Source of the DNA: a virus
Lineage: Duplodnaviria > Caudoviricetes
Virus record (IMG/VR): IMGVR_UViG_3300037067_027616
Span: 128,001 to 192,000 of that record
Reading direction: 5' to 3' (one strand)
Length of the DNA stretch: 64,000 nucleotides
The position numbers were made by a program, and so were the translations under genes. The notes beneath the pieces were generated by a model, which saw nothing but the letters and a program-made list of their open reading frames with translations, was not told where the DNA came from and did not search any database. Within the stretch, counting starts at the first letter, position 1; each line of letters opens with the position of its first letter. Positions 11,454-60,712 of this stretch are shown piece by piece.

Positions 11454-12119
11454 TTAGCCTATGGTCATCATTTTGAGCATGAGGTCGAACGCTTTTTTGG
11501 TGTCATCCACGAACGTGGCGGTTACCGTATTTTTCCAGACGACGAAGATGGGTACTTCCCACAGGACTTCGGTGCCTGTTTTCGGGTAGGTGTCGCCTTT
11601 GATTCGCAGGTTGTGGTCGGCGTCATTCAAGGCCTGCGCGAGGTTGGCGATGGTGACGGCGGGGGGTTGATCGGCCCAATATGTTTCGTAGTGGGGTGTG
11701 CTGTCGGGGCAGTCGGTTTGGGTTTTGAGTTGGATTTCGATGGACCAATCGTTGTTGAGTCCTTTGAGTACGTTGAGGAGCAGGGCGCTGTGTGATTTTC
11801 TTTTGAGTATTTGTCTGAAGCTGAGCATGGCTTCGACGTTGTGGTAGGTGACGCCGAGGCTTCCATTTAGGGCGCCGGCGCCATCATCGGTGATTTCTTT
11901 GTCTTCCGCGACGGACACGAACATATTGGGCATGGGCATGGTGGCGCCTTCGCGCAGGGAGTTGATGCCGTATTTCGGGAACATGATCCATCTGTTTTCG
12001 CTGACGAAGTCCCGTGCCTGGTGTACGGTTTTTGTGCCGTAGTAAGGTCCGACGGCTTCTTCTACCCTGTTGAAGATGCGGTGGGCGGCTGCGGTTTCCG
12101 ATGCGTTGATGCGGTGCAT
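11454..12119 (-). CDS. hypothetical protein
   Basis: 221-aa ORF with GGAG RBS; strongly C/A-biased codons. Confidence 0.75.
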   Translation of the reverse strand: MHRINASETAAAHRIFNRVEEAVGPYYGTKTVHQARDFVSENRWIMFPKYGINSLREGATMPMPNMFVSVAEDKEITDDGAGALNGSLGVTYHNVEAMLSFRQILKRKSHSALLLNVLKGLNNDWSIEIQLKTQTDCPDSTPHYETYWADQPPAVTIANLAQALNDADHNLRIKGDTYPKTGTEVLWEVPIFVVWKNTVTATFVDDTKKAFDLMLKMMTIG

Positions 12120-36605: not shown

Positions 36606-38396
36606 TCAGACAAGTTCCTCAAAAGGTGGGGCTTTTAACGGAAGACCTTTTTCCCTATCCTCTTGTTTCTTTTTGGTTTTTTGTAAAATTTCAGAGTCAA
36701 CTTTATTCTTCAATATTTTCTCCCAGCCTTTTCTTGAAGCCATCTCGCCAAGTATCTTTCGAGCCTCCGCCGCGCGTTGGCGTTCGTCCATGTTGTCAAA
36801 GTGCCCTTCTAAAAGCTTCTTTTTTAGTATTGCTTTTATTTCCCCAACTACAGGGCCTTTTGTAACTTCTGAAAATTCCGCCATGATTTCATCGCCGGAC
36901 ATGGGATCTATATACCGATACGACCCTCCGGAGGGCGCCAGCAATCCTTTTTTGATGTCATCATCCTTGAGTCTTTTTAAGTCTTGTTTAATTTTGTCGA
37001 TCCTTGATTTTTCAGTATCATCGAGAGCTTGATCAGCCTCGATGACAGCAAGAGCGTCATCAAGGTCATTGAAAACACACTGCAGGAAAGTCCTCAAAAG
37101 CATCGATGATTCTTGGGGCGTTTTCGGATCCTTGGTAAAAGCCATATGCGAATGTATTATTTTGGTAATAGAATCAATATCCTCGTTATCGTACGTAAGT
37201 TCTTTGAGGGCTTTTCTTGCCAAATCTACGCCGTATTCAGCGTGTTCTGCGAAATATACGACGGGCTTTCCTTGTTTGTTGATTGCCTTTTTCTCGGTTA
37301 AAAGCTTGCCGATGTCATGGAACAAAGCTGCAAGTCGTGCTTTTTTGGAACCCGGAGTCTTTTTTATAACATCAAGGGTATGTTCCCACACGTTCTCCCC
37401 ATGATGCCATTTTCTTGATGCATCGTGATATACATCGAGCATTTTAGATAAAGTGGGTGATACAAAATCGAGGACACCCATGTCACGCATAAGATCTAGC
37501 CCTTCTGCTGCGACATTCCCATCAGGGTGTTCGAGTATTTTGTTTAATTCTTCACGGATTCTTTCTGGTTTTACTTTGTCTTTTATGATCTCTTTTCCTT
37601 CTTGAGTCTTTGCGAAACGCTTTATGAATTCCTCCGTACTCGGGTCAAATTCAAAATTAGGAAGTTTTCCTTTGAAGCGAATTATGCGGAAAATTCGCAA
37701 TGGGTCGTCTTTGTATATCTGAACCATGCCCCCTGGATGAGGGGGTGGTTTCAGAATTTTTTTCTTTAGATCTTCAACACCGCCGACGAAATCCTTTATT
37801 TCTCCGGACGCGACGTCTTGGTATATGGCGTTCACAGTTAAGTCGCGCCTTTTTGCATCATCTTCAAGTGTGGTATACTTCACGTAGGAAGGTCCACGTC
37901 CTTTGATATAGGGTCCCTCAAGCCGCGGGGGTGTCATTTCAATGACATACCCTGACACATCGATGCCATCGTAAACGAATGGCTGTTGCTTTTCTCGTGG
38001 CTGGACAAGGGCAAGAGTCCAAATGCCATACTGCTCCTTGAGTACCGCCGGGTTGTTAGGGGTTGTGATCCCCAAAGCATCGCCTAATTTTTTTGTGAAT
38101 ATCTCTGCGGCTTTCATGTCGTCTTCTGGGGAGTCCACGACAAGATCTATATCTTTGGGATTCGTGTTCAACATCTTGTCCCGCACGTATCCACCGACAG
38201 CGTAGACTTTGCCTTTGTATTCGGGGAGAGTAGTCGTGACCATGTCTTTCAGAAGCTTTTCTACAGCCTTCGTTTGTGTCGCCTTATCCTCTTTGGACTT
38301 ACGGATTTCGGTTACCGTATGTGCCGTTTGCTTCTGAAGATATGCCAACACTACTCTTATCGAATCTCCCATAGCATCTTTATCCTTGTTATTCAT
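36606..38396 (-). CDS. cca: tRNA nucleotidyltransferase (CCA-adding, class II) with HD domain
   Basis: VGGYVRD, DIDL, RRDLTVNA, DDPLRIFR, ERIREEL, ALFHDIGK. Confidence 0.9.
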   Translation of the reverse strand: MNNKDKDAMGDSIRVVLAYLQKQTAHTVTEIRKSKEDKATQTKAVEKLLKDMVTTTLPEYKGKVYAVGGYVRDKMLNTNPKDIDLVVDSPEDDMKAAEIFTKKLGDALGITTPNNPAVLKEQYGIWTLALVQPREKQQPFVYDGIDVSGYVIEMTPPRLEGPYIKGRGPSYVKYTTLEDDAKRRDLTVNAIYQDVASGEIKDFVGGVEDLKKKILKPPPHPGGMVQIYKDDPLRIFRIIRFKGKLPNFEFDPSTEEFIKRFAKTQEGKEIIKDKVKPERIREELNKILEHPDGNVAAEGLDLMRDMGVLDFVSPTLSKMLDVYHDASRKWHHGENVWEHTLDVIKKTPGSKKARLAALFHDIGKLLTEKKAINKQGKPVVYFAEHAEYGVDLARKALKELTYDNEDIDSITKIIHSHMAFTKDPKTPQESSMLLRTFLQCVFNDLDDALAVIEADQALDDTEKSRIDKIKQDLKRLKDDDIKKGLLAPSGGSYRYIDPMSGDEIMAEFSEVTKGPVVGEIKAILKKKLLEGHFDNMDERQRAAEARKILGEMASRKGWEKILKNKVDSEILQKTKKKQEDREKGLPLKAPPFEELV

Positions 38397-45900: not shown

Positions 45901-45985
45901 TGGCGGAGGATGAGAGGGTCGAACTCCCACGACCTTTCAGTCACGTGTGTTCCAGACACGCCACTTACCATTAGTGTAATCCTCC
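45901..45985 (-). tRNA. tRNA-Ser(GGA)
   Basis: Cloverleaf, long V-arm, CCA encoded. Confidence 0.9.
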
Positions 45986-45995
45986 ATTAATTCGG

Positions 45996-46078
45996 CGGCG
46001 GGCAGAGGACTCGAACCCCTACACCCTTTCGGGCGCCTGATCTCGAATCAGGTGCATTACCAATTATGCAAGCCCGCC
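45996..46078 (-). tRNA. tRNA-Ser(CGA)
   Basis: Cloverleaf; followed by CCG, so CCA not encoded. Confidence 0.9.
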
Positions 46079-46329
46079 TTCCAGCATTTTCTTGACCTTG
46101 TTGAGATCCTCTTCAACTTTTGACATGTCATTGGCAACCATGTCAAGTGCATCGATTTCGTTCTCGTTGAAATTTGTGTCAGACTCCACCCGGCTCTCCT
46201 CCACATCAACATATTTGTCTACGAACACCACCAAATTCGAAAAGTCCTCGATGGCACCTTTGAATTTGGATCGCAGTTGGGCCTCGACAAGTAATTTTTC
46301 TATTTCATCTGCCATAGGATCCCACACAA

Positions 46330-46421
46330 TGGTGGAGGGAGCAAGATTTGAACTTGCGGGAGAGTTGCCCCTCCTCTAGTTTTCAAGACTAGCGCGATAA
46401 ACCAGGCTCTGCCATCCCTCC
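46330..46421 (-). tRNA. tRNA-Ser(TGA)
   Basis: Cloverleaf, long V-arm, CCA. Confidence 0.9.
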
Positions 46422-46572
46422 TCATTTATGAATCGTTCTTTGCACCATGCACTCGACACAAAACCGTATGGCTCGTATCCTGTGCAGGATGTCCTCGAGC
46501 AGGCGGTCGGCTTCCTCCGCCTTCTTCGAGGCCTCGATGTCTTTGTTCTTTGGCTGTGTGTCTTCCATGAAG

Positions 46573-46815
46573 TCAACCTCCAGCGCCTTTGGAACTCTTG
46601 GTATTTTTGCCCCACTCCACGTATCCATAACACGCGATTGCCAAGAATACTGCAAATAACACGACATTGTACAATTCATTCTTGTAGTATCCTACAGCCA
46701 CGAGTATCACGTTGGCGGCGATGTAGAACATAAAACCGATGCGGTTCCTGCGCGCGTTGAGGAGCGCCCCAATTACCCCGAGAAGACTTCCGATCCACCC
46801 AAACACATCAGTCAT
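46573..46815 (-). CDS. PnuC-like small membrane protein
   Basis: Three TM segments, C-terminal YGYVEW motif. Confidence 0.6.
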   Translation of the reverse strand: MTDVFGWIGSLLGVIGALLNARRNRIGFMFYIAANVILVAVGYYKNELYNVVLFAVFLAIACYGYVEWGKNTKSSKGAGG

Positions 46816-47054
46816 TTCAACGGCCCCCGAAGATGACCCACAGCCAGCACACCAAGGATATTAGGAACGGGTAAAAAAGTGGGAACGTTGCTTTTTTGCC
46901 TTTCATTGCGTCATTCAGTTGCTCTAACTTTCCCCAATTGGTGCTCGTGTAACATACAAAGAGTAACAACCGAAGTATGAAAATAAGACCGAACAGTATA
47001 CCGAGCGACCAAGATAAAGCGTTCAAAAAGGCCACGACTTCCTCCTTGAATAAT

Positions 47055-47138
47055 TGGTGCGCCGAGAGAGCATCGAACTCACACGGGTTTCCCCACTGGC
47101 TCCTAAGACCAGCGCGTCTGCCATTCCGCCACCGGCGC
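47055..47138 (-). tRNA. tRNA-Leu(TAG)
   Basis: Cloverleaf, CCA. Confidence 0.9.
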
Positions 47139-47480
47139 TCAATCAAATACCCCGGGGTCGAATTTTGAATTCTTGTAACTGTAACATGTCAATATTACTT
47201 TTTCGCATGGGTCATATCGCGGTCCGTATTCATGCACGACCACTATGAGATTGCCATATTTGTAATACACTGCGTCCTTGAGATACTTTATGGTTTGCCT
47301 CAAACTCTTTTTGGGGGACACAGGAATCAAATCCCCGCGTAAATAAGCGTTTATAAGTCGTTGCTTGGTCAACACCTCATTGATTTTATCGTCTATGCGT
47401 GTACGATATTGCTTGATCGCATGTGGGGCGACTATTACAAATTTACGTAGCTTCGACAGTTGACGATAGGTGACCATCAT
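47139..47480 (-). CDS. hypothetical protein
   Basis: ORF overlapping HPr stop; HAIKQY motif. Confidence 0.6.
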   Translation of the reverse strand: MMVTYRQLSKLRKFVIVAPHAIKQYRTRIDDKINEVLTKQRLINAYLRGDLIPVSPKKSLRQTIKYLKDAVYYKYGNLIVVVHEYGPRYDPCEKVILTCYSYKNSKFDPGVFD

Positions 47481-47749
47481 TCCACCATAAAATTCTCGAG
47501 GATGTCAGCTATTTCTTTGTATGCTTTTTCCTCTTCGGGGCCGCGCACCACAAGACTGACTGTTTTTCCTCCGTCCACCGCGAGCGACAGGAGACTCAAG
47601 ATGCTTTTGGCATCCGCCTTCATGCCGTTCTCCGGGTTCTCAATGGTTATTTCAGTGTTGTCGTACTCCTTGGCCCTTTGACAAATGCACAGCGAAGGTC
47701 TTGCGTGTAGTCCTATCTCGCTGCGTAACCTTACCGTTCCCTTTACCAT
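47477..47749 (-). CDS. ptsH: HPr-family phosphocarrier protein
   Basis: GLHARP, DAKSILSLL. Confidence 0.9.
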   Translation of the reverse strand: MVKGTVRLRSEIGLHARPSLCICQRAKEYDNTEITIENPENGMKADAKSILSLLSLAVDGGKTVSLVVRGPEEEKAYKEIADILENFMVE

Positions 47750-47765
47750 TTCAACCTTTCTTCCT

Positions 47766-47841
47766 TGGAGCCGATGAAGGGACTCAAACCCCCGACCCCC
47801 GCATTACAGGTGCGGTGCTCTATCAGCTGAGCTACATCGGC
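47766..47841 (-). tRNA. tRNA-Thr(TGT)
   Basis: Cloverleaf; C33, A19-U56. Confidence 0.85.
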
Positions 47842-47846
47842 TTATG

Positions 47847-48131
47847 TCAATATTCGTAATGTCCACGATCTTGATCACGCTCTTCTCTATCCCGGCGGCT
47901 CTTCCTCTTCTGCGGGAATTTGTCGAGCATCGCCTTCCTGATTGCATCCTTACGTTTCCGGCGTTTCTGCTCACTCGGTTTCTCGTACGAGCGCCTCTTC
48001 TTCAGTTCTGCGAGGATACCTGCGGACTCGGCGACCCTTTTGAACCTCCTGAGCATCCTCTCGATATTCTCCATACCGCCCTTGGTGTCTACTACTCCGT
48101 ACATTTTTGCTCCTTTGAATGTGTCCTTCAA
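47847..48131 (-). CDS. rpsU: ribosomal protein bS21
   Basis: ENIERMLRRFKR...YEKPSEQKRRK. Confidence 0.9.
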   Translation of the reverse strand: MKDTFKGAKMYGVVDTKGGMENIERMLRRFKRVAESAGILAELKKRRSYEKPSEQKRRKRKDAIRKAMLDKFPQKRKSRRDREERDQDRGHYEY

Positions 48132-49042
48132 GCCCTGCGCATCAAATCCGATACGAGGTGCTTTACTACTGGTGGTGGAAAACCGTTTCCTATACCCTCG
48201 AGCATTTTCGTCCTCGAAAGTACATTAATATCATATTCGTCACCGAGTCCTTGCAACCTCGCCGCAAGTCTGGGGCCACACATGTGAAGTTCCCCCGAGG
48301 GCATGACCACAACCCCATAAGGAACCCCTCGTTTGTAGTTGCTGACTACCGTACCAGCCACCACGTCAAAACGTAACGGTGGATGTCTCTTGCACCTTTT
48401 CGGGTCGCGAAACCAATACTTTTTCTCGTTGTAACTCATGGGACGCGTCAAAGGTTGCGTGTCCTTTTCAGGAGAATCGTAGAGATATTCCCGGACAAGG
48501 CTGGGTTTTTCCCAAGGTTCCTCCGGGTATGTCACGTTCCACTGTATCTTTTTAGAGCAGAGCATAACAACACGGCGCCTGTTCTGCGGCACACCATAAT
48601 CATAGCAGTTTATTTCTTGGCAGTCTACTGCGTACCCGCGTGCTTTCAAATCATTTATTATGGTACATAAATAGCTTTTAAACCGCGAAAGCCCAAAGCT
48701 GTTCTCGATAAGTACGTGATCCGGGTTGCACCGATCAATTGCCCTGAAGAAATGCGGGAAGGTGTTGCGTGAATCGTCTTCCCCCTTTGTGCCAAATCTG
48801 TTGGCACCTGGGGAAAAAGCCTTGCAGACGGGACCTCCGCTGAGAAGGTCACATTCAGTTATCTCGTATTTGTCGACATCTGCGCATATAGCTACGGGAC
48901 TGAGGTACATTGGTTGGCTGTTGTAGGCTTGCACAAACTTCGGGTCGATCTCGCAAGCCCCGACTACATTGGCCCCTGCCTGTGTCATACCCCAAGAGGA
49001 TAGTCCTACGCCAGAGAAGATTTCGACTACACGCATGCTCAC
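48128..49042 (-). CDS. C5 cytosine DNA methyltransferase
   Basis: FSGVG, GGPVC, EN, PQNRRR, GNG. Confidence 0.85.
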   Translation of the reverse strand: MSMRVVEIFSGVGLSSWGMTQAGANVVGACEIDPKFVQAYNSQPMYLSPVAICADVDKYEITECDLLSGGPVCKAFSPGANRFGTKGEDDSRNTFPHFFRAIDRCNPDHVLIENSFGLSRFKSYLCTIINDLKARGYAVDCQEINCYDYGVPQNRRRVVMLCSKKIQWNVTYPEEPWEKPSLVREYLYDSPEKDTQPLTRPMSYNEKKYWFRDPKRCKRHPPLRFDVVAGTVVSNYKRGVPYGVVVMPSGELHMCGPRLAARLQGLGDEYDINVLSRTKMLEGIGNGFPPPVVKHLVSDLMRRA

Positions 49043-49051
49043 CTGTCCATT

Positions 49052-49139
49052 TGGTGCCCGAACCCGGACTTGAACCGGGACGAGGGTTTACCCCCAAGAG
49101 GGTTTAAGCCTCTTGTGTCTTCCATTCCACCACTCGGGC
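49052..49139 (-). tRNA. tRNA-Leu(TAA)
   Basis: Cloverleaf, CCA. Confidence 0.9.
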
Positions 49140-49157
49140 AAAACCTGAAACAAAATA

Positions 49158-49772
49158 CTACTTGCCGGCGACGATGTAAACCCCGGGGGTGCCGTATCCT
49201 TCATAATTCTCGGCCTCCCGGATGCTGTACCCTATCCCCCGCATTTCCTCTACGAGGGTCCTTTTTGAGTATCCGCACGTGTGGAATTGCCCCGGGTCCA
49301 CCGGTGGATCCTCAACATCGCCGCATTCCATGTCGGCTTGGTAACCGAAAAGTGTGTATAAAAACCATCGACGCGAATTCGCGTTCAAGTCCCCACGAAG
49401 AAGGACTCCCATTATCATGTCTATGTCCGGCATGCTGAGGAGCAGGGTGCCCCCAGGCTTAAGAACACGGTGCCAATCTTTCAATGCCAACTTTGCTCTT
49501 CGTATCGGGAGATGCTCCAATGAATGAGCCGAAAAAAGTCCGTCTGCCGTGTTGGGTTTCATCGGTAGCTTGTAGATGTCAGCCTTCAACACTGATGGGA
49601 GCCGTGTATATCGATCGATGTTCACAAACCCTTGCAGAATACGCTTTCCGGAGCCAAGATTTAGGTACACCCCCGGGACATCCACCGCCCTTTTAAACAT
49701 GTCAGCCTCAATCGATTTGAGTCTTTCTCGGGCGTCCACATAGGACTTTGGCAAGTTAAAGGGGGTGCCCAT
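49158..49772 (-). CDS. class I SAM-dependent methyltransferase
   Basis: LNLGSG, HSLEH, RVLKPGG. Confidence 0.85.
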   Translation of the reverse strand: MGTPFNLPKSYVDARERLKSIEADMFKRAVDVPGVYLNLGSGKRILQGFVNIDRYTRLPSVLKADIYKLPMKPNTADGLFSAHSLEHLPIRRAKLALKDWHRVLKPGGTLLLSMPDIDMIMGVLLRGDLNANSRRWFLYTLFGYQADMECGDVEDPPVDPGQFHTCGYSKRTLVEEMRGIGYSIREAENYEGYGTPGVYIVAGK

Positions 49773-49778
49773 ATTGTG

Positions 49779-49807
49779 AATATACTAACTCGGTGTCCTT
49801 TTGTAAA
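49779..49807 (-). promoter_or_regulatory. possible internal sigma70 promoter (leaderless mRNA)
   Basis: TTTACA-17-TATATT just upstream of ATG. Confidence 0.5.
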
Positions 49808-49882
49808 CATCGATCCACCAATAAGTTGTTTATATCCCCTTCCGTTATGCAGGCGGCACACCAGTAACCTGAGGCACGCATC

Positions 49883-50257
49883 ATGGAAGAACAAGAATTA
49901 AAAGAAGTAATCCAAAAGCAACAGGTCGAATCCTGTGATGAGAGGTATGTCCTTGAAAAGGTATATTGGCAACGCACGGTCAAAATGCTTGTCATGATCG
50001 TGTCACTGCTGATCACATTATCAGGAGGCATAATCGCTTGGGGTTTCAAGACTTCCGCAGAGGTTACAAACAACACCCAAGGCAGACGGGAAATCGAACG
50101 CAGGATTAGTGACATCGAATCCTTTTACAGAATTGCCAACGAAAACTACAGCAATGTTGCCAAAAACCAATTGGAAGCCCTACAATACTCACAGAGATTG
50201 AGCAGAAAATTGGACATCCTCATAGAACGGGCCGGGGCAAAATATTTGGAAGAGTAG
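49883..50257 (+). CDS. single-TM coiled-coil membrane protein
   Basis: Hydrophobic segment; GAGG RBS; opposite strand to neighbours. Confidence 0.65.
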   Translation: MEEQELKEVIQKQQVESCDERYVLEKVYWQRTVKMLVMIVSLLITLSGGIIAWGFKTSAEVTNNTQGRREIERRISDIESFYRIANENYSNVAKNQLEALQYSQRLSRKLDILIERAGAKYLEE

Positions 50258-50260
50258 GTG

Positions 50261-50336
50261 TGGTGGAGCCTGAGAGAGTCGAACTCTCGGTCTCCTGCGT
50301 GCAAGGCAGGCGCTTTTCCAATTAAGCTAAGGCCCC
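50261..50336 (-). tRNA. tRNA-Ala(TGC)
   Basis: Cloverleaf, G3-U70, CCA. Confidence 0.92.
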
Positions 50337-50344
50337 ACAATGTT

Positions 50345-50421
50345 TGGAGCCCACGAGTGGATTCAAACCACCGACTTTTTCCTTACCAAGGAAATACTCA
50401 TATCAACTGAGTTACGTGGGC
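50345..50421 (-). tRNA. tRNA-Thr(GGT)
   Basis: Cloverleaf; A19-U56. Confidence 0.85.
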
Positions 50422-50728
50422 TTATCTACCGTATTTGATGCTTAACGATGCCGCTCCGGCTACGCACATCAAAAAAAGATCGTATGTCCTGATCGCATAT
50501 GTGGGTATCTTGCGTAGTTTGTGAATCGTATTTTTAAGTTGTTCTTCGTCCAACAGCAGCGGAACTATCGTCTTGTGAACTCCGTCATACACCATAAAAT
50601 GCACAAAACCTGGATACATAGTTCCTTCAGAAGCAACCGTCCAGGCTCCTTCCGTGTGTGCATACTCATACACAATTAATGATTCCTTTGTCTCCATGTG
50701 TGTGGAGAAAAATGAATGTGTTATTCGG

Positions 50729-50804
50729 TGGCAGGGTGAGAGGGCATCGAACCCCCAGCCTCAGGTTTTGGAGACCTGCGCTCTGCCGATTGAGCTATCA
50801 CCCT
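50729..50804 (-). tRNA. tRNA-Trp(CCA)
   Basis: Cloverleaf, CCA. Confidence 0.92.
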
Positions 50805-52212
50805 AAAAGAGATATGAACTGATCGTAATTTTGTTTTGATCCGCCCACGCCCTCATAATTCGTTGCTCTTGAGGAGTAGGCGATCTGTTGCTCATACCAC
50901 GTGCTTGACAGATCTGCCCTTTGGTGAGTTCCATGGTGACCATCCTCCACGAGCCTTCCTTGTCAAACAACCTCAACGACCATATCGAGGATCTTCCCGA
51001 TGAGCAGGCCCATGTGTATGATGCCACGCAATGTTTCATGGCCCGGCCTTCATCGTACAGTTCCTTCGAGGTCAAAAGTTCCTTGATAATCCAAACCCTG
51101 CGGTTCTGCCCAGTTCCTTCCTCGAGCCGGAAGTCAGACACCACGCTGTGACTCCAAGAGGACGCACCTTTTTTAGCCTTTCCAAGTTCTTTGTGCCACC
51201 GTTCAACTTGATCCATCAAGGTATTGGCGTTCCGGCCGTTCATGCTGAAGTTTGGTTGTTCGGGATTTTGAGTAACGATGTTGCCTCGGTCGTCATATTC
51301 ATTGCGTATCTCATATTTAATGTGGCATATGTAATCGATGATCGGACCATATTGATTCGAGTCGAGCATGGGATTTGCAATGAGAAATTTTATAAACGAC
51401 TGCCGGAACTCATCATCAAACCGTTGCATGCGAGTGCCCCGCAAACGGGATGATATCCTCGTGTCCCCGCCGAGGGCAACGACCTGGCCATGTAAGAGGG
51501 CATCTATTACAGAGAAATACCCGGGGGCTTCAAGGAAATGGTGCGCCATCTTTTTCGTCAGCGGGAACGGAAGATTTCTCGCCGTCCGTATGTTGTTGCC
51601 GTTCCCTATGTGTATGTACCACTCTTGATGGAGTTGTTCATCAGCCTCCCAAACGCTGTCCATGAAGGTTGGTATGGGATACTTCGTGAAAAGGTGCCGT
51701 AACAACGATGATATCTGCCGTTGCAAGCTGTGGCTCTTCACCACCCACGTGGTGGGATCCTTTATCCAATACGGGGACCACCTCGCGATTTTTATGAGCA
51801 TCCTGATCGCTTGGGTGTCTTTAAGGATCTTTGACCGGTCATTACCTTTTCCAGACACGGAGTCGACAAGTTTGATTAAAGATCTTTTTGTGTCTTCGTC
51901 TAAAACAGACCTGTGATCAAACAGCGCGTTAGAAACAGAGGAAAATTCACACGATTTAGTTGGGTCTTGCAGGACCCTGTGAATGGCTTCCCGTTCGTTT
52001 CGAGGGGTGTGACTGCTTTTTTCCAAAGCTTTGATAGCCTTGTCTGCTTTGTATATCGAGGCCTCCCGTGCAATTTGCCAAGGGGTTTTATACCACGTGG
52101 CCTCAAACCCTGCTTCCTGGCACCACTCAAGGTACTTCGGCATCTCCAAACCGAAGCTACGAAGTATGACTTGTTCGGCGCTCTCCTTGTTGTACTTTTT
52201 CTGTACGGCCAT
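50803..52212 (-). CDS. PcfJ-domain protein
   Basis: EGRAMKHCVASY...SIWSLR...QARG..NR. Confidence 0.85.
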   Translation of the reverse strand: MAVQKKYNKESAEQVILRSFGLEMPKYLEWCQEAGFEATWYKTPWQIAREASIYKADKAIKALEKSSHTPRNEREAIHRVLQDPTKSCEFSSVSNALFDHRSVLDEDTKRSLIKLVDSVSGKGNDRSKILKDTQAIRMLIKIARWSPYWIKDPTTWVVKSHSLQRQISSLLRHLFTKYPIPTFMDSVWEADEQLHQEWYIHIGNGNNIRTARNLPFPLTKKMAHHFLEAPGYFSVIDALLHGQVVALGGDTRISSRLRGTRMQRFDDEFRQSFIKFLIANPMLDSNQYGPIIDYICHIKYEIRNEYDDRGNIVTQNPEQPNFSMNGRNANTLMDQVERWHKELGKAKKGASSWSHSVVSDFRLEEGTGQNRRVWIIKELLTSKELYDEGRAMKHCVASYTWACSSGRSSIWSLRLFDKEGSWRMVTMELTKGQICQARGMSNRSPTPQEQRIMRAWADQNKITISSYLF

Positions 52213-52223
52213 AAGGTCACCTT

Positions 52224-53111
52224 CTACAGGATGACGATTCTGACATCAGGTACTCCCGCAGGATCCGCCTCTATGACTGCGGCGATTAGTTTGGAGGTTT
52301 CCACCCACGGGTGTCTCATGAGGTAGTCTTCTCTCATGGTTTCCATCCTCGAGGGGTCGATGACGGCGGCGGACAGATACTGTCCAGGTTGCACGACAAC
52401 GGTTCTGCCGATGGTGGCTGTACGTATTTTTGTCCTCCAGGGGCATTCATGTATGTGTCCGGACAATACCATGTACGGCTGCTTTTCCTCAATCCATTCT
52501 TTGATGGCGTTTGACCCGACCTCGCGGCCATCTATGCACACATCCAACCCGACCAATTTGGGAGGGGAATGTATGGCTATTATCTCGTTCGGCTTCGCCT
52601 TTCTCGACCGCAAATCATCTTCGATGGTGCCTTTTTTTCGGAAGTATTCTTTCACATCTATTATGGGTACCAACCCGTGTTCGGTGTCTTCTGTGGGTAT
52701 CTGTATATACGATTCAGGTTTCCACCCCTTGTGGTCATACTTGCAGGCGGTCTTCAACCCGAACGGATAGTCAGGCACGTACGGGTATCCAGTAAACGTA
52801 AACCCCTCGAAATCGATGGGTTTCTCATCGATGAGATCCCCGCATCTTTCCCGGTAGAGGGGTTTGCGTGTCCACAAGTCATCATTGCCAAACATGGCCA
52901 TGAACTTTATGTCCTTATCTCCGCACTTCTTGATGAACCCCGGCAAGAATTTCTTTATGAATTCCTTCTGCCGCGGTTGCATGGAGTAACCTTTTGGGAG
53001 TATGTCGGCTCCCACGTGAAGGAGTTTTGCTCCTTCAGTTACGCATAAATCGAGAGCCTTTGCGTACTTCCCCTCATCCCCATGTAAATCTGTGGCATAA
53101 ACGAACTTCAT
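52224..53111 (-). CDS. calcineurin-like metallophosphoesterase
   Basis: TDLHG, GAD, GNDD, HSPP, SGHIHE. Confidence 0.85.
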   Translation of the reverse strand: MKFVYATDLHGDEGKYAKALDLCVTEGAKLLHVGADILPKGYSMQPRQKEFIKKFLPGFIKKCGDKDIKFMAMFGNDDLWTRKPLYRERCGDLIDEKPIDFEGFTFTGYPYVPDYPFGLKTACKYDHKGWKPESYIQIPTEDTEHGLVPIIDVKEYFRKKGTIEDDLRSRKAKPNEIIAIHSPPKLVGLDVCIDGREVGSNAIKEWIEEKQPYMVLSGHIHECPWRTKIRTATIGRTVVVQPGQYLSAAVIDPSRMETMREDYLMRHPWVETSKLIAAVIEADPAGVPDVRIVIL

Positions 53112-53137
53112 TCGTCACCCCATTCAAAAGGTAAGAT

Positions 53138-53166
53138 AATATACTATTTTGAATATCTTTTGTCAC
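53138..53166 (-). promoter_or_regulatory. possible internal sigma70 promoter
   Basis: GTGACA-17-TATATT. Confidence 0.5.
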
Positions 53167-53175
53167 CTTGAATTT

Positions 53176-53254
53176 TGGTAGGATCGGTGAGATTTGAACT
53201 CACGACCAGCTGCTTATAAGGCAGCTGCTCATCACCAGGCTGAGCTACGATCCT
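53176..53254 (-). tRNA. tRNA-Ile(TAT)
   Basis: Cloverleaf with UAU anticodon, CCA. Confidence 0.88.
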
Positions 53255-53303
53255 ACAAACCGGAGTGTGCTGACAATGAAGCATGTCCATACTTTGATAA
53301 TTG

Positions 53304-53376
53304 TGGAGCTGAGGGGGATCGAACCCCTGGCCTCGACATTGCGAACGTCGCGCTCTCCCAGCTGAGCTACAGCCCC
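53304..53376 (-). tRNA. tRNA-Ala(CGC)
   Basis: Cloverleaf, G3-U70; CCA not encoded (CAA). Confidence 0.9.
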
Positions 53377-53397
53377 GTATTAGATTCTTAAAATTTG

Positions 53398-53694
53398 TCA
53401 TGCGGCCCAAGGACGTATATCAGAAAGATCTTCCTGCCAAGGTCTGCAGTATCTTTTCTCCTGCATAGTCCTTTTGTCTTTGTTCCAACGACTTCTACGT
53501 GGGTTTCCGCAGGAAGAACAAGAACACAATTTGGTCGTGTTCCTTCTCAAGTAACCCCAACGTTCGAGAAGTTTCTTCTTCTGTTCTTCGGTACACCATG
53601 TCCACCGGTATGAACTGGTTTCACCGCGAGCACGTGCGTCACCTTTCCACTTTCCTACGAGGAAGCGTTCCCGGCGATTGCGGGGATGAGGCAT
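53398..53694 (-). CDS. small basic protein (CSCxxCGNPRR)
   Basis: AAGGAGG RBS; Arg/Lys-rich. Confidence 0.75.
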   Translation of the reverse strand: MPHPRNRRERFLVGKWKGDARARGETSSYRWTWCTEEQKKKLLERWGYLRRNTTKLCSCSSCGNPRRSRWNKDKRTMQEKRYCRPWQEDLSDIRPWAA

Positions 53695-53797
53695 CAGTAA
53701 CCTCCTTATGAGTTAAATACTGATTGCCATCATTTTACCCCTTTGTTGGAAAAGTGATTACACTATCATCTTTTAAAAATGAGTAGATGATTAATTT

Positions 53798-53873
53798 TGG
53801 TGGAGCTGGCGAGGGTCGAACTCACTACCTCCTCGTAGCCAACGAGGCGCTCTCCCAATTGAGCTACAGCCCC
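53798..53873 (-). tRNA. tRNA-Ala(GGC)
   Basis: Cloverleaf; U37; CCA. Confidence 0.9.
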
Positions 53874-53902
53874 ACATTGATAATATACTATCAAAAACAT
53901 TG

Positions 53903-54014
53903 AAATGGACTGCGGTCTCCGGTTCGCCTATGGGAGCCACCTGTGCTTGATAACGGGAGAGGTGGGCGCCCACGTCACCGCCATTCCGGTTCACACGATA
54001 CCCGCAGTCCATTT
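53903..54014 (-). ncRNA. unidentified ~105-nt structured RNA
   Basis: Terminal stem aaatggactgcgg/ccgcagtccattt, internal stem and possible pseudoknot. Confidence 0.6.
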
Positions 54015-54020
54015 TTGTTT

Positions 54021-54098
54021 TGGAGCCAACGACTGGACTCGAACCAGCAACCCCCGCATTACGAATGCGGTGCTCTACCAAATTGAAGCTACGTTGGC
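54021..54098 (-). tRNA. tRNA-Thr(CGT)
   Basis: Cloverleaf, CCA. Confidence 0.92.
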
Positions 54099-54099
54099 A

Positions 54100-54176
54100 T
54101 GGTGGGCGACAGAGGGCTCGAACCTCTGATCTCCGCGATGTGGACGCGGCGCCTTAGCCGACTGGGCCAGTCGCCC
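54100..54176 (-). tRNA. tRNA-Val(CAC)
   Basis: Cloverleaf; C33; CCA. Confidence 0.88.
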
Positions 54177-54186
54177 CTGAAGATTG

Positions 54187-54275
54187 TGGTGGGAGGTGAT
54201 GGAGTCGAACCACCCGAGCCCGTTAAAGGCAACAGCTCTACAGGCTGTCCCGCTACCCCTACGGTATAACCTCCC
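54187..54275 (-). tRNA. tRNA-Tyr(GTA)
   Basis: Cloverleaf, long V-arm, CCA. Confidence 0.9.
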
Positions 54276-54286
54276 ATAAATAAAAA

Positions 54287-54492
54287 GGGGACACTCCCGT
54301 AATTGGACTTCTGTTCTATGGCCACATTTGACTGAGCCCGAGACCCGTCCATTGTAGCCCTGCTCACCGGCTAGGACTGTTTTCGGTTGCTACCGAGGAA
54401 GTGCGGGCGACCTTGCGATCTCCTTCCACGAGCAGTGTAGGTCCAATTTCCTCACCGGACTGACGTCCGGCGCGTGACCTCGGAGTGTCCCC
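54287..54492 (-). ncRNA. rnpB: minimal RNase P-like RNA
   Basis: P1, P2 and P3 helices; GAGGAA and ACAGAA flanking a complementary P4 (AAUUGGAC/GUCCAAUU). Confidence 0.75.
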
Positions 54493-54497
54493 GGGAT

Positions 54498-54583
54498 TGG
54501 TGCTCAAGGAGAGACTTGAACTCTCACGAAGTTTCCCTCGGTGGGTTTTGAGTCCACTGGGTCTGCCATTCCCCCACTTGAGC
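54498..54583 (-). tRNA. tRNA-Leu(CAA)
   Basis: Cloverleaf, CCA. Confidence 0.9.
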
Positions 54584-54627
54584 ATGTTCATAATTTCACG
54601 AATGTTCACGTAAACGTGAACAAAAAT

Positions 54628-54711
54628 TGGTGCGGCTGACTGGATTTGAACCAGCAAGGCGTTTGCCATAACGTTCTTAGCGTTACGTGTATGCCATTCC
54701 ACCACAGCCGC
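54628..54711 (-). tRNA. tRNA-Leu(AAG)
   Basis: Cloverleaf with A34, CCA. Confidence 0.88.
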
Positions 54712-54718
54712 ATATTTA

Positions 54719-54874
54719 TAAGATCCGCGTCCGAGTCGATGGGGCGTCTTCTTTCGAAGACTGATTAACCATCAGTTGCTCCACCCTGGAGCATACTCCC
54801 CATAAGTGGGGAGTCGTGGGATCGAACCACGCATACACGGAATGTACGCCCTCTCATGGAGGACGCGGATCTTA
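54719..54874 (-). ncRNA. circularly permuted tRNA-like / Y-RNA-like element 1 (loop GTT)
   Basis: Order T-arm, closed acceptor, D-arm, anticodon arm, inside a 14-bp terminal stem. Confidence 0.8.
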
Positions 54875-54882
54875 ATTTCAGT

Positions 54883-55042
54883 AGGACACCGTCCGAGTCG
54901 ATGGAGCGTCATCGTCAGATGATGGTTTAGAGACCATTGCGTTTACCATTTCGCCATCCCGGCATTGGTGCCGGGGCCAGGATTTGAACCTGGAGTTGCC
55001 TTTCGGCTTAAATGTACGCTTCGTCCTGGAGGACGGTGTCCT
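54883..55042 (-). ncRNA. circularly permuted tRNA-like / Y-RNA-like element 2 (loop CTA; ACCA in acceptor loop)
   Basis: Same architecture and conserved flanks. Confidence 0.8.
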
Positions 55043-55048
55043 TTTTCT

Positions 55049-55134
55049 TGGTGCGGATGAAAGGATTTGAACCTTCATGGGTGTTAGCCCACTAGCGCCT
55101 GAAACTAGCGTGTCTGCCTTTCCACCACATCCGC
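55049..55134 (-). tRNA. tRNA-Leu(CAG)
   Basis: Cloverleaf, CCA. Confidence 0.9.
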
Positions 55135-55144
55135 GCATCTTAAT

Positions 55145-55293
55145 GGGATCCCCGCCTGAGTCGACGGAGCAAGTGACGCATTTTGACTGTTTTACTGACA
55201 GTTGCCTTACCATTTGGCTATTCCCCCATATAAGGGGGAATCAGGAGTTGAACCTGAAGAGTGTATGCTTTCATCATGGAAGGCGAGGATCCC
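55145..55293 (-). ncRNA. circularly permuted tRNA-like / Y-RNA-like element 3 (loop GTA)
   Basis: Same architecture and conserved flanks. Confidence 0.8.
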
Positions 55294-55302
55294 TAACTTG
55301 TT

Positions 55303-55380
55303 TGGGGTGACCGGCGAGACTCGAACTCGTAACCGCTGGATTCACAATCCAGTGCTCTGACCAATTGAGCTACGGCCACC
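55303..55380 (-). tRNA. tRNA-His(GTG)
   Basis: Cloverleaf, G-1:C73, CCA. Confidence 0.92.
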
Positions 55381-55392
55381 ATAATTCTCCTT

Positions 55393-55466
55393 TGGAGCTG
55401 GCGCCCAGATTTGAACTGAGGATGAAGGTTTTGCGGACCTTTGCCTTTCCACTTGGCTACGCCAGC
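55393..55466 (-). tRNA. tRNA-Cys(GCA)
   Basis: Cloverleaf, U73, C33, CCA. Confidence 0.9.
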
Positions 55467-55623
55467 ATAAGGTAACAAGGAGGAGGGAACGGGCCGGGGA
55501 GCACCGCCCCCACCCCTTGATGCTATTGACATGACTGCGTCCCGCATCAGCGGGCGCATTCATCATGTGCTTCATGCAAACAATCCGTATTTTCAATGAA
55601 CCAGAAACCACAAACAACTCCGT

Positions 55624-55668
55624 AAAAACTTAAAGGCCCCCGTCCGAATCTCTCCGGGCGGGGGCCTT
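55624..55668 (-). terminator. attenuator A terminator
   Basis: AAGGCCCCCGCCCGGA-GAGA-TTCGGACGGGGGCCTT followed by TAAGTTTTT; 5' arm can alternatively pair with 55700-55714. Confidence 0.85.
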
Positions 55669-55690
55669 CTGGTTTTCGCTATGGGCTTGT

Positions 55691-55813
55691 TCAGCCCTTC
55701 AGAAGTCCCCCGCCGTAACTATCCCACGTGAGGTGCAAATACGACAGTCGGCATGCGGCTATCGCTTGCACGTTTGTGGATGATCCGGTTAGTAAGGACT
55801 CTCTGCGTTTCAT
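55691..55813 (-). CDS. leader peptide A (MKRRESLLTGSSTNVQAIAACRLSYLHLTWDSYGGGLLKG)
   Basis: CAGGAG RBS after promoter; codons match all 20 downstream tRNAs. Confidence 0.85.
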   Translation of the reverse strand: MKRRESLLTGSSTNVQAIAACRLSYLHLTWDSYGGGLLKG

Positions 55814-55835
55814 TTGAAAACTCCTGATGGCTCCA

Positions 55836-55864
55836 AATATACCACACAAAAATGGTTTTGTCAA
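55836..55864 (-). promoter_or_regulatory. sigma70 promoter of tRNA array A
   Basis: TTGACA-17-TATATT. Confidence 0.85.
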
Positions 55865-56094
55865 CCTGTTTCTTCCAAAGGCCTTTGGGACAGCGGGAAC
55901 AGCCTCTCATCCACCTGCTTTACGAGGCTCCAAAGTGATGGACACTCCGGCCCATCACCGTAGGTGCTTATGTACTGCCGGATGTACGCACGGGCGTTTT
56001 CAAGTTGCTCGCGGGTCATGCACCCTGTGGTCGTGGACACCGCCTTGGTGAACGCTGTTTCCTTCTCGCTCAACTGCTCGGTGACATCGTCCAT
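55861..56094 (-). CDS. hypothetical protein
   Basis: AAGGAG RBS. Confidence 0.6.
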   Translation of the reverse strand: MDDVTEQLSEKETAFTKAVSTTTGCMTREQLENARAYIRQYISTYGDGPECPSLWSLVKQVDERLFPLSQRPLEETG

Positions 56095-56561: not shown

Positions 56562-57224
56562 TTATTGCGAGGGACTATAGATTCCTTTGTCCACTATGAA
56601 AGCGAGAACCATACTCGAGAGTCCTGCTTTCAGTATCCCCGGCACGGGGGTGGTCCTGTCCTTCCACGTATGCAATGCCTCGCGTGCTTTCGTGGATGAC
56701 ATGTCGGGTGTGGCCAGGCCCTCCAGATACCTGTGACCACCGGTGGTGTACCATGCCCCGGGGATGTGAACGTATCCCGGCCGTGGCACAACGATAAACG
56801 ATGCGAAGATCCGCAGTTCCTCAAAGTGCTTCCACCTGCCAAAATCGAGGGCATTGTCCAAGCCTATGACGAATTTGAAGGTCACATCTTCGTAGTCGCC
56901 GGCGAGGTTCATGGCCGTCTTCATGGTGCTGCCGTCATCCCAACAGGACCACCGTTTGGCGACTTCAAACTCGAAGTCGCTGACGATTATGCGCTTCTCT
57001 CCTTCAGGCACGGCGAGTGTACACAATTTCACCCGTTCGGAGAAGTCTGTCATGACCTTGCCGAAACAATGATCGATGCACGGCATCAGCCATACCTCAT
57101 CCACCTTGAGTGTCGGGTTGTTGAGTATCCCCAAGGCAACATCGATGTGTCCCGTGGTCGGCGGGTCGAAAGATCCCCCGAACACAGCCACCACCTTGGT
57201 CGGTTTTTTATCCGTGACGGTCAT
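56562..57224 (-). CDS. nadD: nicotinate/nicotinamide mononucleotide adenylyltransferase
   Basis: FGGSFDPPTTGH, IGLDN, W, MSST. Confidence 0.85.
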   Translation of the reverse strand: MTVTDKKPTKVVAVFGGSFDPPTTGHIDVALGILNNPTLKVDEVWLMPCIDHCFGKVMTDFSERVKLCTLAVPEGEKRIIVSDFEFEVAKRWSCWDDGSTMKTAMNLAGDYEDVTFKFVIGLDNALDFGRWKHFEELRIFASFIVVPRPGYVHIPGAWYTTGGHRYLEGLATPDMSSTKAREALHTWKDRTTPVPGILKAGLSSMVLAFIVDKGIYSPSQ

Positions 57225-58375: not shown

Positions 58376-58747
58376 TCATCTCAACTCTATTTTTGCCCCG
58401 ACCTCCTCGAACCTCGTTTTGAGAGCCTCGGCCTCCGCTTTCGCGAGTCCGTCCTTTATCACCGCTCCTGGCACCGTGTTCTTGCCGGCGTCCATCAAAC
58501 TTGCTCCGGTCACCTCACGGAGTATCTTGATGACTTGGATGCGTTTTTCTCCGACCTCTGACAATACTACCGAGAACTCTGTCTGTTCCTCGACCACCGG
58601 CGCCGTGTTTACCTGTGGCACCATCGGTGTAATCACATCCGAAGCCTTCACCCCAAATTTTTCTTCAAGCGCCCGGGTGAGTTCGACAAGTTCCATCACG
58701 GTCATCGACCCGAAGGCTTCAAGCAGCTGCTCGTTTGTATAAGACAT
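58376..58747 (-). CDS. rplL: ribosomal protein bL12 (L7/L12)
   Basis: MTVMELVELTRALEEKFGV...EEQTEFSVVL...IQVIK; start MSYTN after CAGGAG RBS. Confidence 0.93.
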   Translation of the reverse strand: MSYTNEQLLEAFGSMTVMELVELTRALEEKFGVKASDVITPMVPQVNTAPVVEEQTEFSVVLSEVGEKRIQVIKILREVTGASLMDAGKNTVPGAVIKDGLAKAEAEALKTRFEEVGAKIELR

Positions 58748-58771
58748 GTCTATCTCCTGTCTTTGAATGTC

Positions 58772-58850
58772 TGGTACCGGAAGCCGGGGTCGAACCGGCG
58801 ACAGACCTGCCGTATGAGAGCAGCGCTCTACCACGCTGAGCTATTCCGGT
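58772..58850 (-). tRNA. tRNA-CAT (elongator Met or Ile2)
   Basis: Cloverleaf, CCA. Confidence 0.88.
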
Positions 58851-60516: not shown

Positions 60517-60553
60517 AAAAAACCCCACCGATCCTTTTGGGCCCGGTGGGGTT
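60517..60553 (-). terminator. attenuator B terminator
   Basis: CCCCACCGG...TCGGTGGGG followed by TTTTTT; 5' arm can alternatively pair with GCCCGGTGG after the leader stop. Confidence 0.85.
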
Positions 60554-60578
60554 CAGAATGCTAACGAGTCCACCGGGC

Positions 60579-60650
60579 TTACATGGCAATATCCATGCTA
60601 TCAAAGTCGATAGCGCTGAAGATAATGCTGATGCCGATGGTAGTACGCAT
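60579..60650 (-). CDS. leader peptide B (MRTTIGISIIFSAIDFDSMDIAM)
   Basis: AAGGAG RBS after promoter; Ile/Ser(AGC)/Phe/Asp/Met-rich. Confidence 0.85.
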   Translation of the reverse strand: MRTTIGISIIFSAIDFDSMDIAM

Positions 60651-60683: not shown

Positions 60684-60712
60684 AATATACCACGGATTTA
60701 GAAGATTGTCAA
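60684..60712 (-). promoter_or_regulatory. sigma70 promoter of tRNA array B
   Basis: TTGACA-17-TATATT. Confidence 0.85.

Follow-up and report, generated by a model that had tools for sequence, protein, structure and literature searches.

Among enterobacterial operons, the multivalent leaders of ilvGMEDA, with Ile, Leu and Val codons, and of thr, with Thr and Ile codons, stand beside the leaders trpL, hisL, leuL and pheL, and in Escherichia coli attenuation at pheST, through the pheM leader, controls phenylalanyl-tRNA synthetase. Here we describe what is probably a ribosome-mediated (leader-peptide) transcription attenuator in a virus of the Caudoviricetes (Duplodnaviria). It was found in a stretch of 64,000 nucleotides, hereafter the window, which comprises bases 128001-192000 of the 466,729-bp IMG/VR virus record IMGVR_UViG_3300037067_027616, and it consists of a 40-codon leader open reading frame (ORF) and a terminator, followed by a block of 20 tRNA genes. 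Judging from its sequence and that of its surroundings, this element is likely to be one of five that split an array of 47 tRNAs into separately gated operons, which we number units 1 to 5 in the direction of transcription, the 40-codon leader belonging to unit 5. Positions are those of the window, and features lie on its minus strand, unless another coordinate system or strand is given.

When set against the general model of leader-peptide attenuation (PMC1183508), all the sequence-level features that we tested were present in unit 5, namely, promoter, Shine-Dalgarno (SD) sequence, short ORF, terminator, antiterminator sharing an arm with the terminator, and an appropriately placed stop codon. 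The trp/his-type geometry that an initial annotation of the stretch had claimed was thus borne out. As in the ilv and thr attenuators, a promoter-proximal short ORF with regulatory codons is followed by an intrinsic terminator, the antiterminator shares the 5' arm of that terminator, the stop codon is placed so that a terminating ribosome can block the antiterminator, and several inputs are combined in one leader. The two kinds differ as follows. First, the ilv and thr attenuators control biosynthetic enzymes, whereas the phage units would control tRNA genes together with a few translation and other proteins; no amino-acid biosynthesis or synthetase gene, the classical scope of this kind of control, is among the genes controlled in unit 5. 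Second, the ilv and thr leaders carry runs of codons for one to three amino acids, whereas the unit-5 leader addresses 20 tRNAs for 10 amino acids, mostly with one codon each. Third, the phage units would sense their direct gene product, in a loop that leads from tRNA to ribosome speed and back to tRNA transcription. The pheST operon shares with the phage units the attenuation of a component of the translation apparatus in response to charged tRNA, but there a synthetase is controlled by a single amino-acid input, whereas in the phage it is the tRNA genes themselves.

The virus record has a GC content of 49%, lacks a 16S gene, is 98% complete according to CheckV, and encodes 49 tRNAs and a tmRNA. 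All but two of these tRNAs (47/49) form a single minus-strand array that runs from genome position 210277 down to 173901. The window holds 26 of the tRNA genes, all on the minus strand, and between the unit-5 leader and position 45901 ARAGORN called exactly 20, from 55466 to 45901. This block (45901-55466) encodes tRNAs for Cys, His, Leu (five), Tyr, Val, Thr (three), Ala (three), Ile-UAU, Trp and Ser (three), interspersed with genes for a metallophosphoesterase, a PcfJ-like protein and two methyltransferases, and the order of its tRNAs is identical in four related loci (L005, L006, L010 and L017).

Direct reading of the minus strand upheld the coordinates that had been annotated for promoter, ribosome-binding site, leader and terminator. 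The promoter (55836-55864) reads TTGACA, a 17-nt spacer and TGnTATATT, which amounts to 11 of 12 matches in a consensus scan with the TG extension present; promoters of the same type stand at the head of all five tRNA units and of many other genes of the genome. The SD sequence AGGAG (55821-55825) lies 7 nt 5' of the ATG, which is itself about 23 nt past the -10 box. The leader (55691-55813) starts with the ATG at 55813, comprises 40 sense codons, 36 of them distinct, and ends with TGA at 55693-55691. Between the leader and the first tRNA is the terminator, a GC-rich hairpin of 14 pairs, 11 of them GC (55668-55633), followed by a T-run; its U-rich tail, TTTAAGTTTTT (55620-55632), is kept in relatives.

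The initial annotation had proposed that this leader lists the exact cognate codon of every downstream tRNA, and a scripted comparison gave the same answer: the Watson-Crick codon of each of the 20 anticodons is present (20/20), while AGC, ATC, GAC and TTC, which are cognate to tRNAs encoded upstream, are absent. For a stated set of 20 codons among 36 distinct ones out of 61, the hypergeometric probability is 1.2e-6. When the overlap was scored for 308,358 stop-free 40-codon segments, taken from the six frames of the whole 467-kb genome, the locus proved unique: only four overlapping segments reached 20/20, all of them at unit 5, where all segments scoring at least 18 were also found, and the best score elsewhere was 17. 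Furthermore, when the peptide was held fixed and its synonymous codons were redrawn, uniform choice gave 20/20 at P ~5e-6, whereas 200,000 draws that followed the codon usage of the genome itself never did so. Because synonymous choice alone is so improbable, the match is not an effect of amino-acid composition. A chance origin is excluded, and the unit-5 feature is real and highly non-random. Indeed, the notion that a codon-diverse ORF and a terminator merely happen to lie side by side has nothing in its favour except that the ORF was picked after looking; we give it next to no credence, given an ORF that is the single genome-wide maximum, four more units that match their own blocks, and relatives that conserve the match with compensation, as described below.

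Minimum-free-energy folds divided the transcript into regions of the classical kind, namely, region 1 (codons 3-7; 55794-55805), which pairs with region 2 in untranslated RNA, region 2 or antiterminator strand (codons 34-38; 55700-55714), which ends 6 nt 5' of the stop codon, and regions 3 and 4, or terminator hairpin (55633-55671), whose 5' arm is common to the antiterminator. As the initial annotation had noticed, region 2 (55714-55700) pairs at 14 of 15 positions with the terminator arm (55671-55657), and we calculate -34.6 kcal/mol for this helix, compared with -30.7 kcal/mol for the terminator. The full transcript folds into a helix of regions 1 and 2 (codons 3-7 with codons 35-38) plus the terminator, with a z score of -4.6 relative to shuffled sequences. 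With a ribosome stalled at any of codons 6-26 and the RNA up to the ribosome masked, the predicted fold is the antiterminator; with the RNA masked up to a ribosome at the stop codon, it is the terminator alone. Over six sequences, this one and five from relatives, 95% of the 2:3 helix is paired, and L005 has two pairs in which both partners have changed; the terminator hairpin is 93% paired across relatives. Two of the inventory codons fall within or beside the antiterminator strand, namely, TAC at codon 33 and, at codon 37, the sole CTT, and a stall there would mask region 2 rather than free the antiterminator. Their wobble equivalents, TAT (codon 25) and CTC (codon 28), are in the working part of the leader, and it is TAT, not TAC, that is retained in relatives.

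The mechanism that we propose for unit 5 would operate as follows. Host RNA polymerase would start at the sigma-70-type promoter, and a ribosome would load on the leader at once. With prompt decoding, the ribosome would arrive at the stop codon and cover region 2, the terminator would form, and transcription would stop before the first tRNA. With a charged tRNA in short supply, decoding would be slow at any of the listed codons and the ribosome would lag behind, so that region 2 could capture the 5' arm of the terminator once this is made, with readthrough into the tRNA block as the outcome. Since the operon encodes the very tRNAs that decode its regulatory codons, it would be subject to negative feedback by its own products, little tRNA leading to readthrough and enough tRNA to termination. 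We infer this coupling of readthrough to tRNA level from the anatomy of the locus, the codon statistics and evolutionary conservation. A strict OR gate and a summed race between ribosome and polymerase, that is, a timer, are equally possible. Candidate triggers would be a host pool poor in certain isoacceptors, loss of host tRNA during infection, or cleavage by a defence nuclease, although an anticodon nuclease as the trigger is speculation.

The evolutionary part of the argument comes from relatives of the phage. Homologues of the neighbouring PcfJ-like protein, about 50% identical, were found on short metagenomic contigs, two of which are L005 and L006; and a 22-nt pattern from the spacer 3' of the terminator, which is neutral to the codons of the leader, retrieved L008 to L012. 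The resulting set provides five further distinct unit-5 leaders, in contigs that show no array of a relative as a whole. The promoter is kept in L005, L008, L009, L010 and L012, and the SD site of the relatives reads GGAGG, GAGAGG or GGGAGG. Their leaders differ from that of the window at 13-22 codon positions, and still 19-20 of the 20 tRNAs are represented, inventory codons that are lost at one site recurring at another. In L010, for instance, ATA and ACA are exchanged, GCG stands at codon 10 instead of codon 17, and an inserted codon supplies GCA, while in L008 TCG is relocated to codon 4. When the differing codons were randomised, the observed coverage had P values of 0.001-0.02 in each lineage, and leader positions without an inventory codon vary freely. 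Insertions and deletions within the leaders are whole codons, L005 excepted, where region 2 is kept at the nucleotide level but read in another frame, with a stop directly after it. The distance from region 2 to the stop codon, 6 nt in the window, is 0-3 nt in relatives, even where the frame is different. Thus, on the question raised in the initial annotation of whether leaders and tRNA content vary together, the inventory and the switch have been kept, whereas some codons are without a visible tRNA, to which we return below.

These alignments bear on whether the leader needs to be translated at all. A translation-independent RNA switch, in which the leader would bind a protein or, as a multi-specifier, T-box-like element, the anticodons of tRNAs, would suit the high nucleotide-level conservation of the core and the strong structure of the leader RNA seen in its z score. 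T-box riboswitches, too, attenuate transcription by a choice between terminator and antiterminator, and sense the state of one particular tRNA through its anticodon. However, they bind uncharged tRNA directly, without a ribosome, have one specifier codon and control synthetase or amino-acid genes, whereas the phage element has an SD sequence and an ORF. Moreover, SD and ATG are conserved at the right spacing, the inventory triplets are all in one open frame, most insertions and deletions are multiples of three, the stop codon tracks region 2, and many of the triplets would be buried in helices of the free RNA. A cmscan search of Rfam over 55300-55900, with E values up to 10, gave no match to the T-box model and only one match of any kind, a 17-bit Phe_leader hit on the opposite strand, for a gathering score of 55 bits; the element thus belongs to none of the families Trp_leader, His_leader, Leu_leader, Thr_leader and Phe_leader. 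We therefore hold a switch of this sort to be very unlikely, and favour ribosome-mediated attenuation.

The initial annotation had further predicted that the tRNAs missing from the block, namely, those for Arg, Asn, Gln, Glu, Gly, Lys and Pro, would be found behind similar leaders, and just upstream there are three further leaders of the same build, which head units 1 to 3. A search with the promoter motif gave 22 minus-strand sites in the genome, five of them inside the array, at genome positions 210479, 206100, 199991, 188712 (window 60712) and 183864 (window 55864), and downstream of each of these five come a short ORF, then a GC-rich hairpin and its T-run, and then tRNAs. First, the unit-1 leader of 19 codons, with GAA, GAG, GGT, GGA, AGA and AGG, precedes tRNAs for Glu (two), a tRNA with anticodon CAU, Arg-UCU, Arg-CCU and Gly (three). 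Second, the 21 codons of the unit-2 leader, which include AAA, AAG, GTC, GTA, CGA, CGC and CGG, precede tRNAs for Lys (two), Val (two), Arg-CCG and Arg-ACG. Third, the unit-3 leader, of 26 codons with CAG, CAA, AAC, CCA, CCC and CCG, precedes tRNAs for Asn, Gln (two) and Pro (three). Fourth, unit 4, which lies within the window, has its promoter, identified by the consensus scan, at 60684-60712 and its 23-codon leader at 60579-60650, with codons for Ile (ATC four times, ATT twice), Ser (AGC three times), Phe (TTC, TTT), Asp (GAC once, GAT twice) and Met (ATG three times); its tRNAs, located 3' of the leader at 60436-58085, are those for Phe, Asp, Met (two), Ile-GAU and Ser-GCU. In the switch of this unit (60522-60578), the TAA is immediately followed by the antiterminator strand GCCCGGTGG, whose pairing partner is the 5' arm of the terminator hairpin; a T-run follows that hairpin. 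SD sequence and ATG are placed in units 2-4 much as in unit 5, while unit 1 is nearly leaderless, with the ATG only about 10 nt past the -10 box.

The folds of units 1-4 behave as that of unit 5, with antiterminators of -20 to -26 kcal/mol and, over all five units, terminators of about -22 to -31 kcal/mol. In all five, the terminator 5' arm has an alternative partner at or near the leader stop codon, the antiterminator strand being situated between about -26 and +17 nt relative to the first base of that codon. Homologues of a truncated release-factor gene of unit 1 led us to L027, L028, L030 and L031, in which leaders and switches of units 1-3, of the same build, are kept, and the unit-4 leader is kept in L011. 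There, one compensation involves three strands at once, GGTGG/CCACC/GGTGG having become GACGG/CCGTC/GACGG. Antiterminator partners around the stop codon were recovered in most units and relatives, the automated check failing for unit 1 of L028 and unit 4 of L011.

Coverage of the own tRNA block by exact codons was 6/8, 5/6, 6/6, 5/5 and 20/20 for units 1 to 5, with genome-wide empirical P values of 3.5e-3, 6.9e-3, 6.5e-4, 4.2e-3 and 1.3e-5, respectively. Coverage of the blocks of other units was low in most pairings, with the exception of the unit-5 leader, which has six of the eight codons of unit 1. A sharper comparison is offered by the split families, that is, the Arg, Ser, Ile and Val tRNAs that are divided between units (Arg AGR and CGN, Ser AGC and TCN, Ile, Val): of the 27 leader codons concerned, tRNAs of the same unit read 24, where 15 were expected (P 1.4e-4).

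With five units at hand, it can be asked whether the short ORFs matter for their peptides, as functional micropeptides or ribosome-arrest peptides, the tRNA match being a by-product of composition and the hairpin a plain terminator. Amino-acid composition alone does explain the codon match in units 1-4, and the unit-5 peptide has a C-terminal half (LSYLHLTW, GGGLL) that all six sequences conserve. Nevertheless, synonymous choice alone in unit 5 is as improbable as stated above, the N-terminal half swaps amino acids freely while the codon set is kept through relocations, and each of the five peptides, unrelated as they are, matches its own block rather than the other blocks. To this can be added that the split codon families track the tRNAs of the unit in which they occur, that region 2 of L005 is kept as RNA in a different reading frame, and that a covarying alternative partner at the stop codon would be needless for a plain terminator. 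On balance, we hold peptide function to be very unlikely, and consider attenuation by decoding the better account of the same ORFs.

A closer question is what such attenuators would sense. They could be real and yet respond to general translation capacity or to amino-acid starvation, the codon match serving only to have the leader decoded by tRNAs of the phage itself. A stall always hinges on charged tRNA, and starvation for an amino acid would therefore open the switch as well; the match of units 1-4 is one of amino acids; and the tRNA operons also encode translation proteins, namely, a release factor 1 (RF1)-domain protein and ribosomal protein bL12. For a starvation sensor, however, three to five synonymous codons per amino acid, one for each isoacceptor gene, would be unnecessary, yet they are maintained by compensation; the Arg, Ser and Ile codons track the isoacceptors of their own unit; and extra tRNA does not relieve amino-acid starvation. 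We thus regard sensing of this general kind as unlikely. The isoacceptor-level match in unit 5, with its five Leu, three Ala, three Thr and three Ser codons, suggests instead that it is tRNA species, not amino acids, that would be sensed by this attenuator.

Several observations weigh against a tRNA-sensing attenuator, or against parts of it, and are best considered together. First, the match in units 1-4 is not significant with the peptide fixed (synonymous-only P 0.15-0.36), and the signal of these units sits in amino-acid composition. Second, the conserved C-terminal half of the unit-5 peptide, noted above in all six sequences, may reflect a role for the peptide. Third, the covariation of leader codons with tRNA content is imperfect: the L005 leader keeps GCG and ATA, whereas the visible 7 kb of its array showed neither Ala-CGC nor Ile-UAU; L010 and L017 keep Ala-CGC and have no Ile-UAU at the expected place; and L030 keeps ATA, GGC and GGT, with no CAU or GCC tRNA in the visible part. 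Fourth, with mostly one codon per tRNA, as compared with the runs of classical attenuators, the response may be weak, and sensitivity to a moderate shortage is uncertain. Fifth, the 1:2 helix, which we consider plausible, is weakly supported, being 83% paired over the six sequences with no covariation beyond controls, and it is not evident in every unit; in addition, on thermodynamics alone, untranslated RNA that extends as far as the terminator loop already favours the 2:3 helix, so that basal termination would depend on kinetics or on translation. Finally, the initial annotation had cautioned that internal promoters might drive distal tRNAs. A promoter-like site without leader or terminator does lie 5' of the metallophosphoesterase gene (53138-53166; 10 of 12 matches), and may feed nine distal tRNAs of the 20 without gating. 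This caveat stands in so far as a site just upstream of the same gene is also present in L005 and L006, and perhaps in L010, whose promoter-like site (7129) was not mapped to that gene, but not in L017, which has none before it.

If the attenuators act as we propose, they would extend leader-peptide attenuation from amino acids to isoacceptors, with up to 20 inputs in a leader of 40 codons, and would, to our knowledge, be the first to subject tRNA genes directly to feedback by the speed of decoding. For fifty years it has been asked why phages carry tRNA genes, and the regulation of large arrays has hardly been studied; with such leaders, the tRNAs that limit a phage, and when they do so, could be read from sequence and tested with simple reporters. 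It is tempting to go one step further and see in the five attenuators an inducible replacement system with isoacceptor resolution, in which the leader would serve as a ribosome-based meter of the tRNA pool and loss of one species, by a host anticodon nuclease, by phage-driven decay of host RNA or through an isoacceptor-poor host pool, would open only the operon in which a substitute is encoded. We put this extension forward tentatively, as something that may well turn out otherwise. Possible uses include compact natural sensors that report on the state of individual tRNAs, and markers for annotating the boundaries of tRNA operons in huge phages.

Phage tRNA arrays have been discussed as compensation for, or escape from, host defences that target tRNA (eLife 2023, PMC10264068; also Nat Commun 2024, PMC11555353), and there, as in our case, the subject is large phage tRNA sets that are thought to sustain translation when host tRNAs are lost. 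The leaders described here would be a control circuit for such arrays, and the words attenuator, leader, terminator and promoter do not occur in the text of PMC10264068. Full-text literature searches returned no leader-peptide attenuation of tRNA genes, in phages or in cells. In mycobacteria, leaderless poly-cysteine short ORFs are presented as attenuators (bioRxiv 10.1101/834739), and resemble phage unit 1 in having a short regulatory ORF at or near the 5' end of the transcript. They have, however, a single amino-acid input and cysteine-related genes, and a terminator/antiterminator pair like that of the phage is not known for them. Among other phages with tRNA arrays, Mycobacterium phage ScoobyDoobyDoo has a 24-codon ORF with hairpins 5' of 27 tRNAs, which covers 13 of the 27 (P 0.086); it thus gives no support, and the design is therefore not universal. 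Inspection of Vibrio phage D479 and Burkholderia phage FLC9 by eye showed nothing obvious. A generic scanner for codon-matched short ORFs 5' of tRNA blocks was too crude for this purpose and was set aside, as it ranked unit 5 low and missed terminators.

Other attempts at finding relatives were less productive. Searches of viral contigs with the NadD-like and PcfJ-like proteins gave no relatives; a 150-amino-acid (aa) neighbour protein gave three loci, none with tRNAs; an alignment of a 77-aa upstream protein found nothing in metagenome or viral contigs; the spacer pattern found nothing in viral contigs and, in genome contigs, only unrelated high-GC bacteria; and blastn against GenBank phages returned tRNA-His matches only. 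L013 was discarded as a spurious match to the spacer pattern. L007, L014-L016, L018 and L019 have PcfJ homologues but no tRNAs.

The region between terminator and tRNA-Cys deserves mention in its own right. This structured spacer of about 140 nt (55470-55612) is near-invariant in seven loci (L005:1700-1835; L006:1-145; and the matching parts of L008-L012), although the proteins of these seven are only about 50% identical. An indel breaks any reading frame in it, and its hairpins, one with the loop CUGAUG and one GC-rich at the 3' end, show compensatory changes; it matches no Rfam family. The spacer may serve as a processing platform, act as a small RNA or add a second layer of regulation. A few bases past the attenuator terminators is a TTGACAG box, at genome 210310-210290 in unit 1 and 199795-199780 in unit 3 (minus strand), the tRNA of unit 3 beginning 14 nt past it. 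The unit-5 box (55606-55596) reads TTGAAAA in the window and TTGACAG in relatives, and that of unit 4 TTTACAG. The idea of a second promoter at this box was set aside, as no -10 element is recognisable behind it. We also rejected a lipoprotein or Tat signal peptide in the unit-5 leader (MKRR...AIAAC), given a weak hydrophobic core and an N-terminus that is not conserved.

Unit 1 and its relatives provided further observations. The unit-1 leader (L004:18382-18441, minus strand) has ATA three times, one of them at the same place in all four relatives, and because of this conserved ATA the CAU tRNA of the unit (genome 209153-209227) may be a lysidine-type Ile2 tRNA rather than Met. GGG, the codon of Gly-CCC, is missing from four of five unit-1 leaders. 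In L030, a tRNA (12026-12100) about 75-80% identical to the phage Gly tRNAs has the anticodon GCA instead of GCC, and the unit-1 leader of that contig (about 9494-9556) has TGC at codon 2, the sole Cys codon among the five unit-1 leaders, which makes for an anecdotal case of covariation. Inside the L006 array, ARAGORN also called a tRNA (4679-4772) whose anticodon, GUAG, has four bases.

The RF1-domain protein of unit 1 is truncated, with 188 aa (L004:17383-17949, minus strand). In four of the five relatives' loci (L027, L028, L029 and L031, not L030) a separate ORF of 37 aa lies 5' of its gene, with a weak PCRF match in L028 and L029, so that an interruption of the gene is possible. Among the phage tRNAs is one with anticodon CUA, and the unit-2 leader ends in TAG, a stop kept in three genomes; in all three, a ribosome that reads through it would move onto, or come up against, the terminator's 5' arm (further coordinates for these observations are L004:3861-3937 and L004:13981-14046, both minus strand). 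This suggests a possible cross-talk of suppressor activity with the unit-2 attenuator, or stop-codon recoding.

Near the array are genes for tRNA upkeep and translation, namely, a tRNA nucleotidyltransferase, a protein with a polynucleotide-kinase-like ATPase domain, ribosomal protein bL12 and a NadD-like cytidylyltransferase (36606-38396, minus strand; 34634-36094, plus strand; 58376-58834 and 56562-57224, both minus strand). The CCA-adding enzyme and the polynucleotide-kinase-like protein fit a phage that has invested in the upkeep of its tRNAs, which proves nothing about defence. In relatives, genes for bS21 and HPr are also found within the unit-5 block. The two tRNAs outside the array, Asn-AUU and a second Leu-UAA (genome 411456-411917, plus strand), are remote from it and lie directly 3' of a consensus promoter, without leader ORF or terminator. 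Lastly, genomes labelled Candidatus Poribacteria encode, in ordinary chromosomal contexts, many proteins homologous to the phage PcfJ-like protein at about 40% identity (proteins P0013-P0120, e.g. locus L007), a weak hint that may point to the host lineage or to gene exchange.

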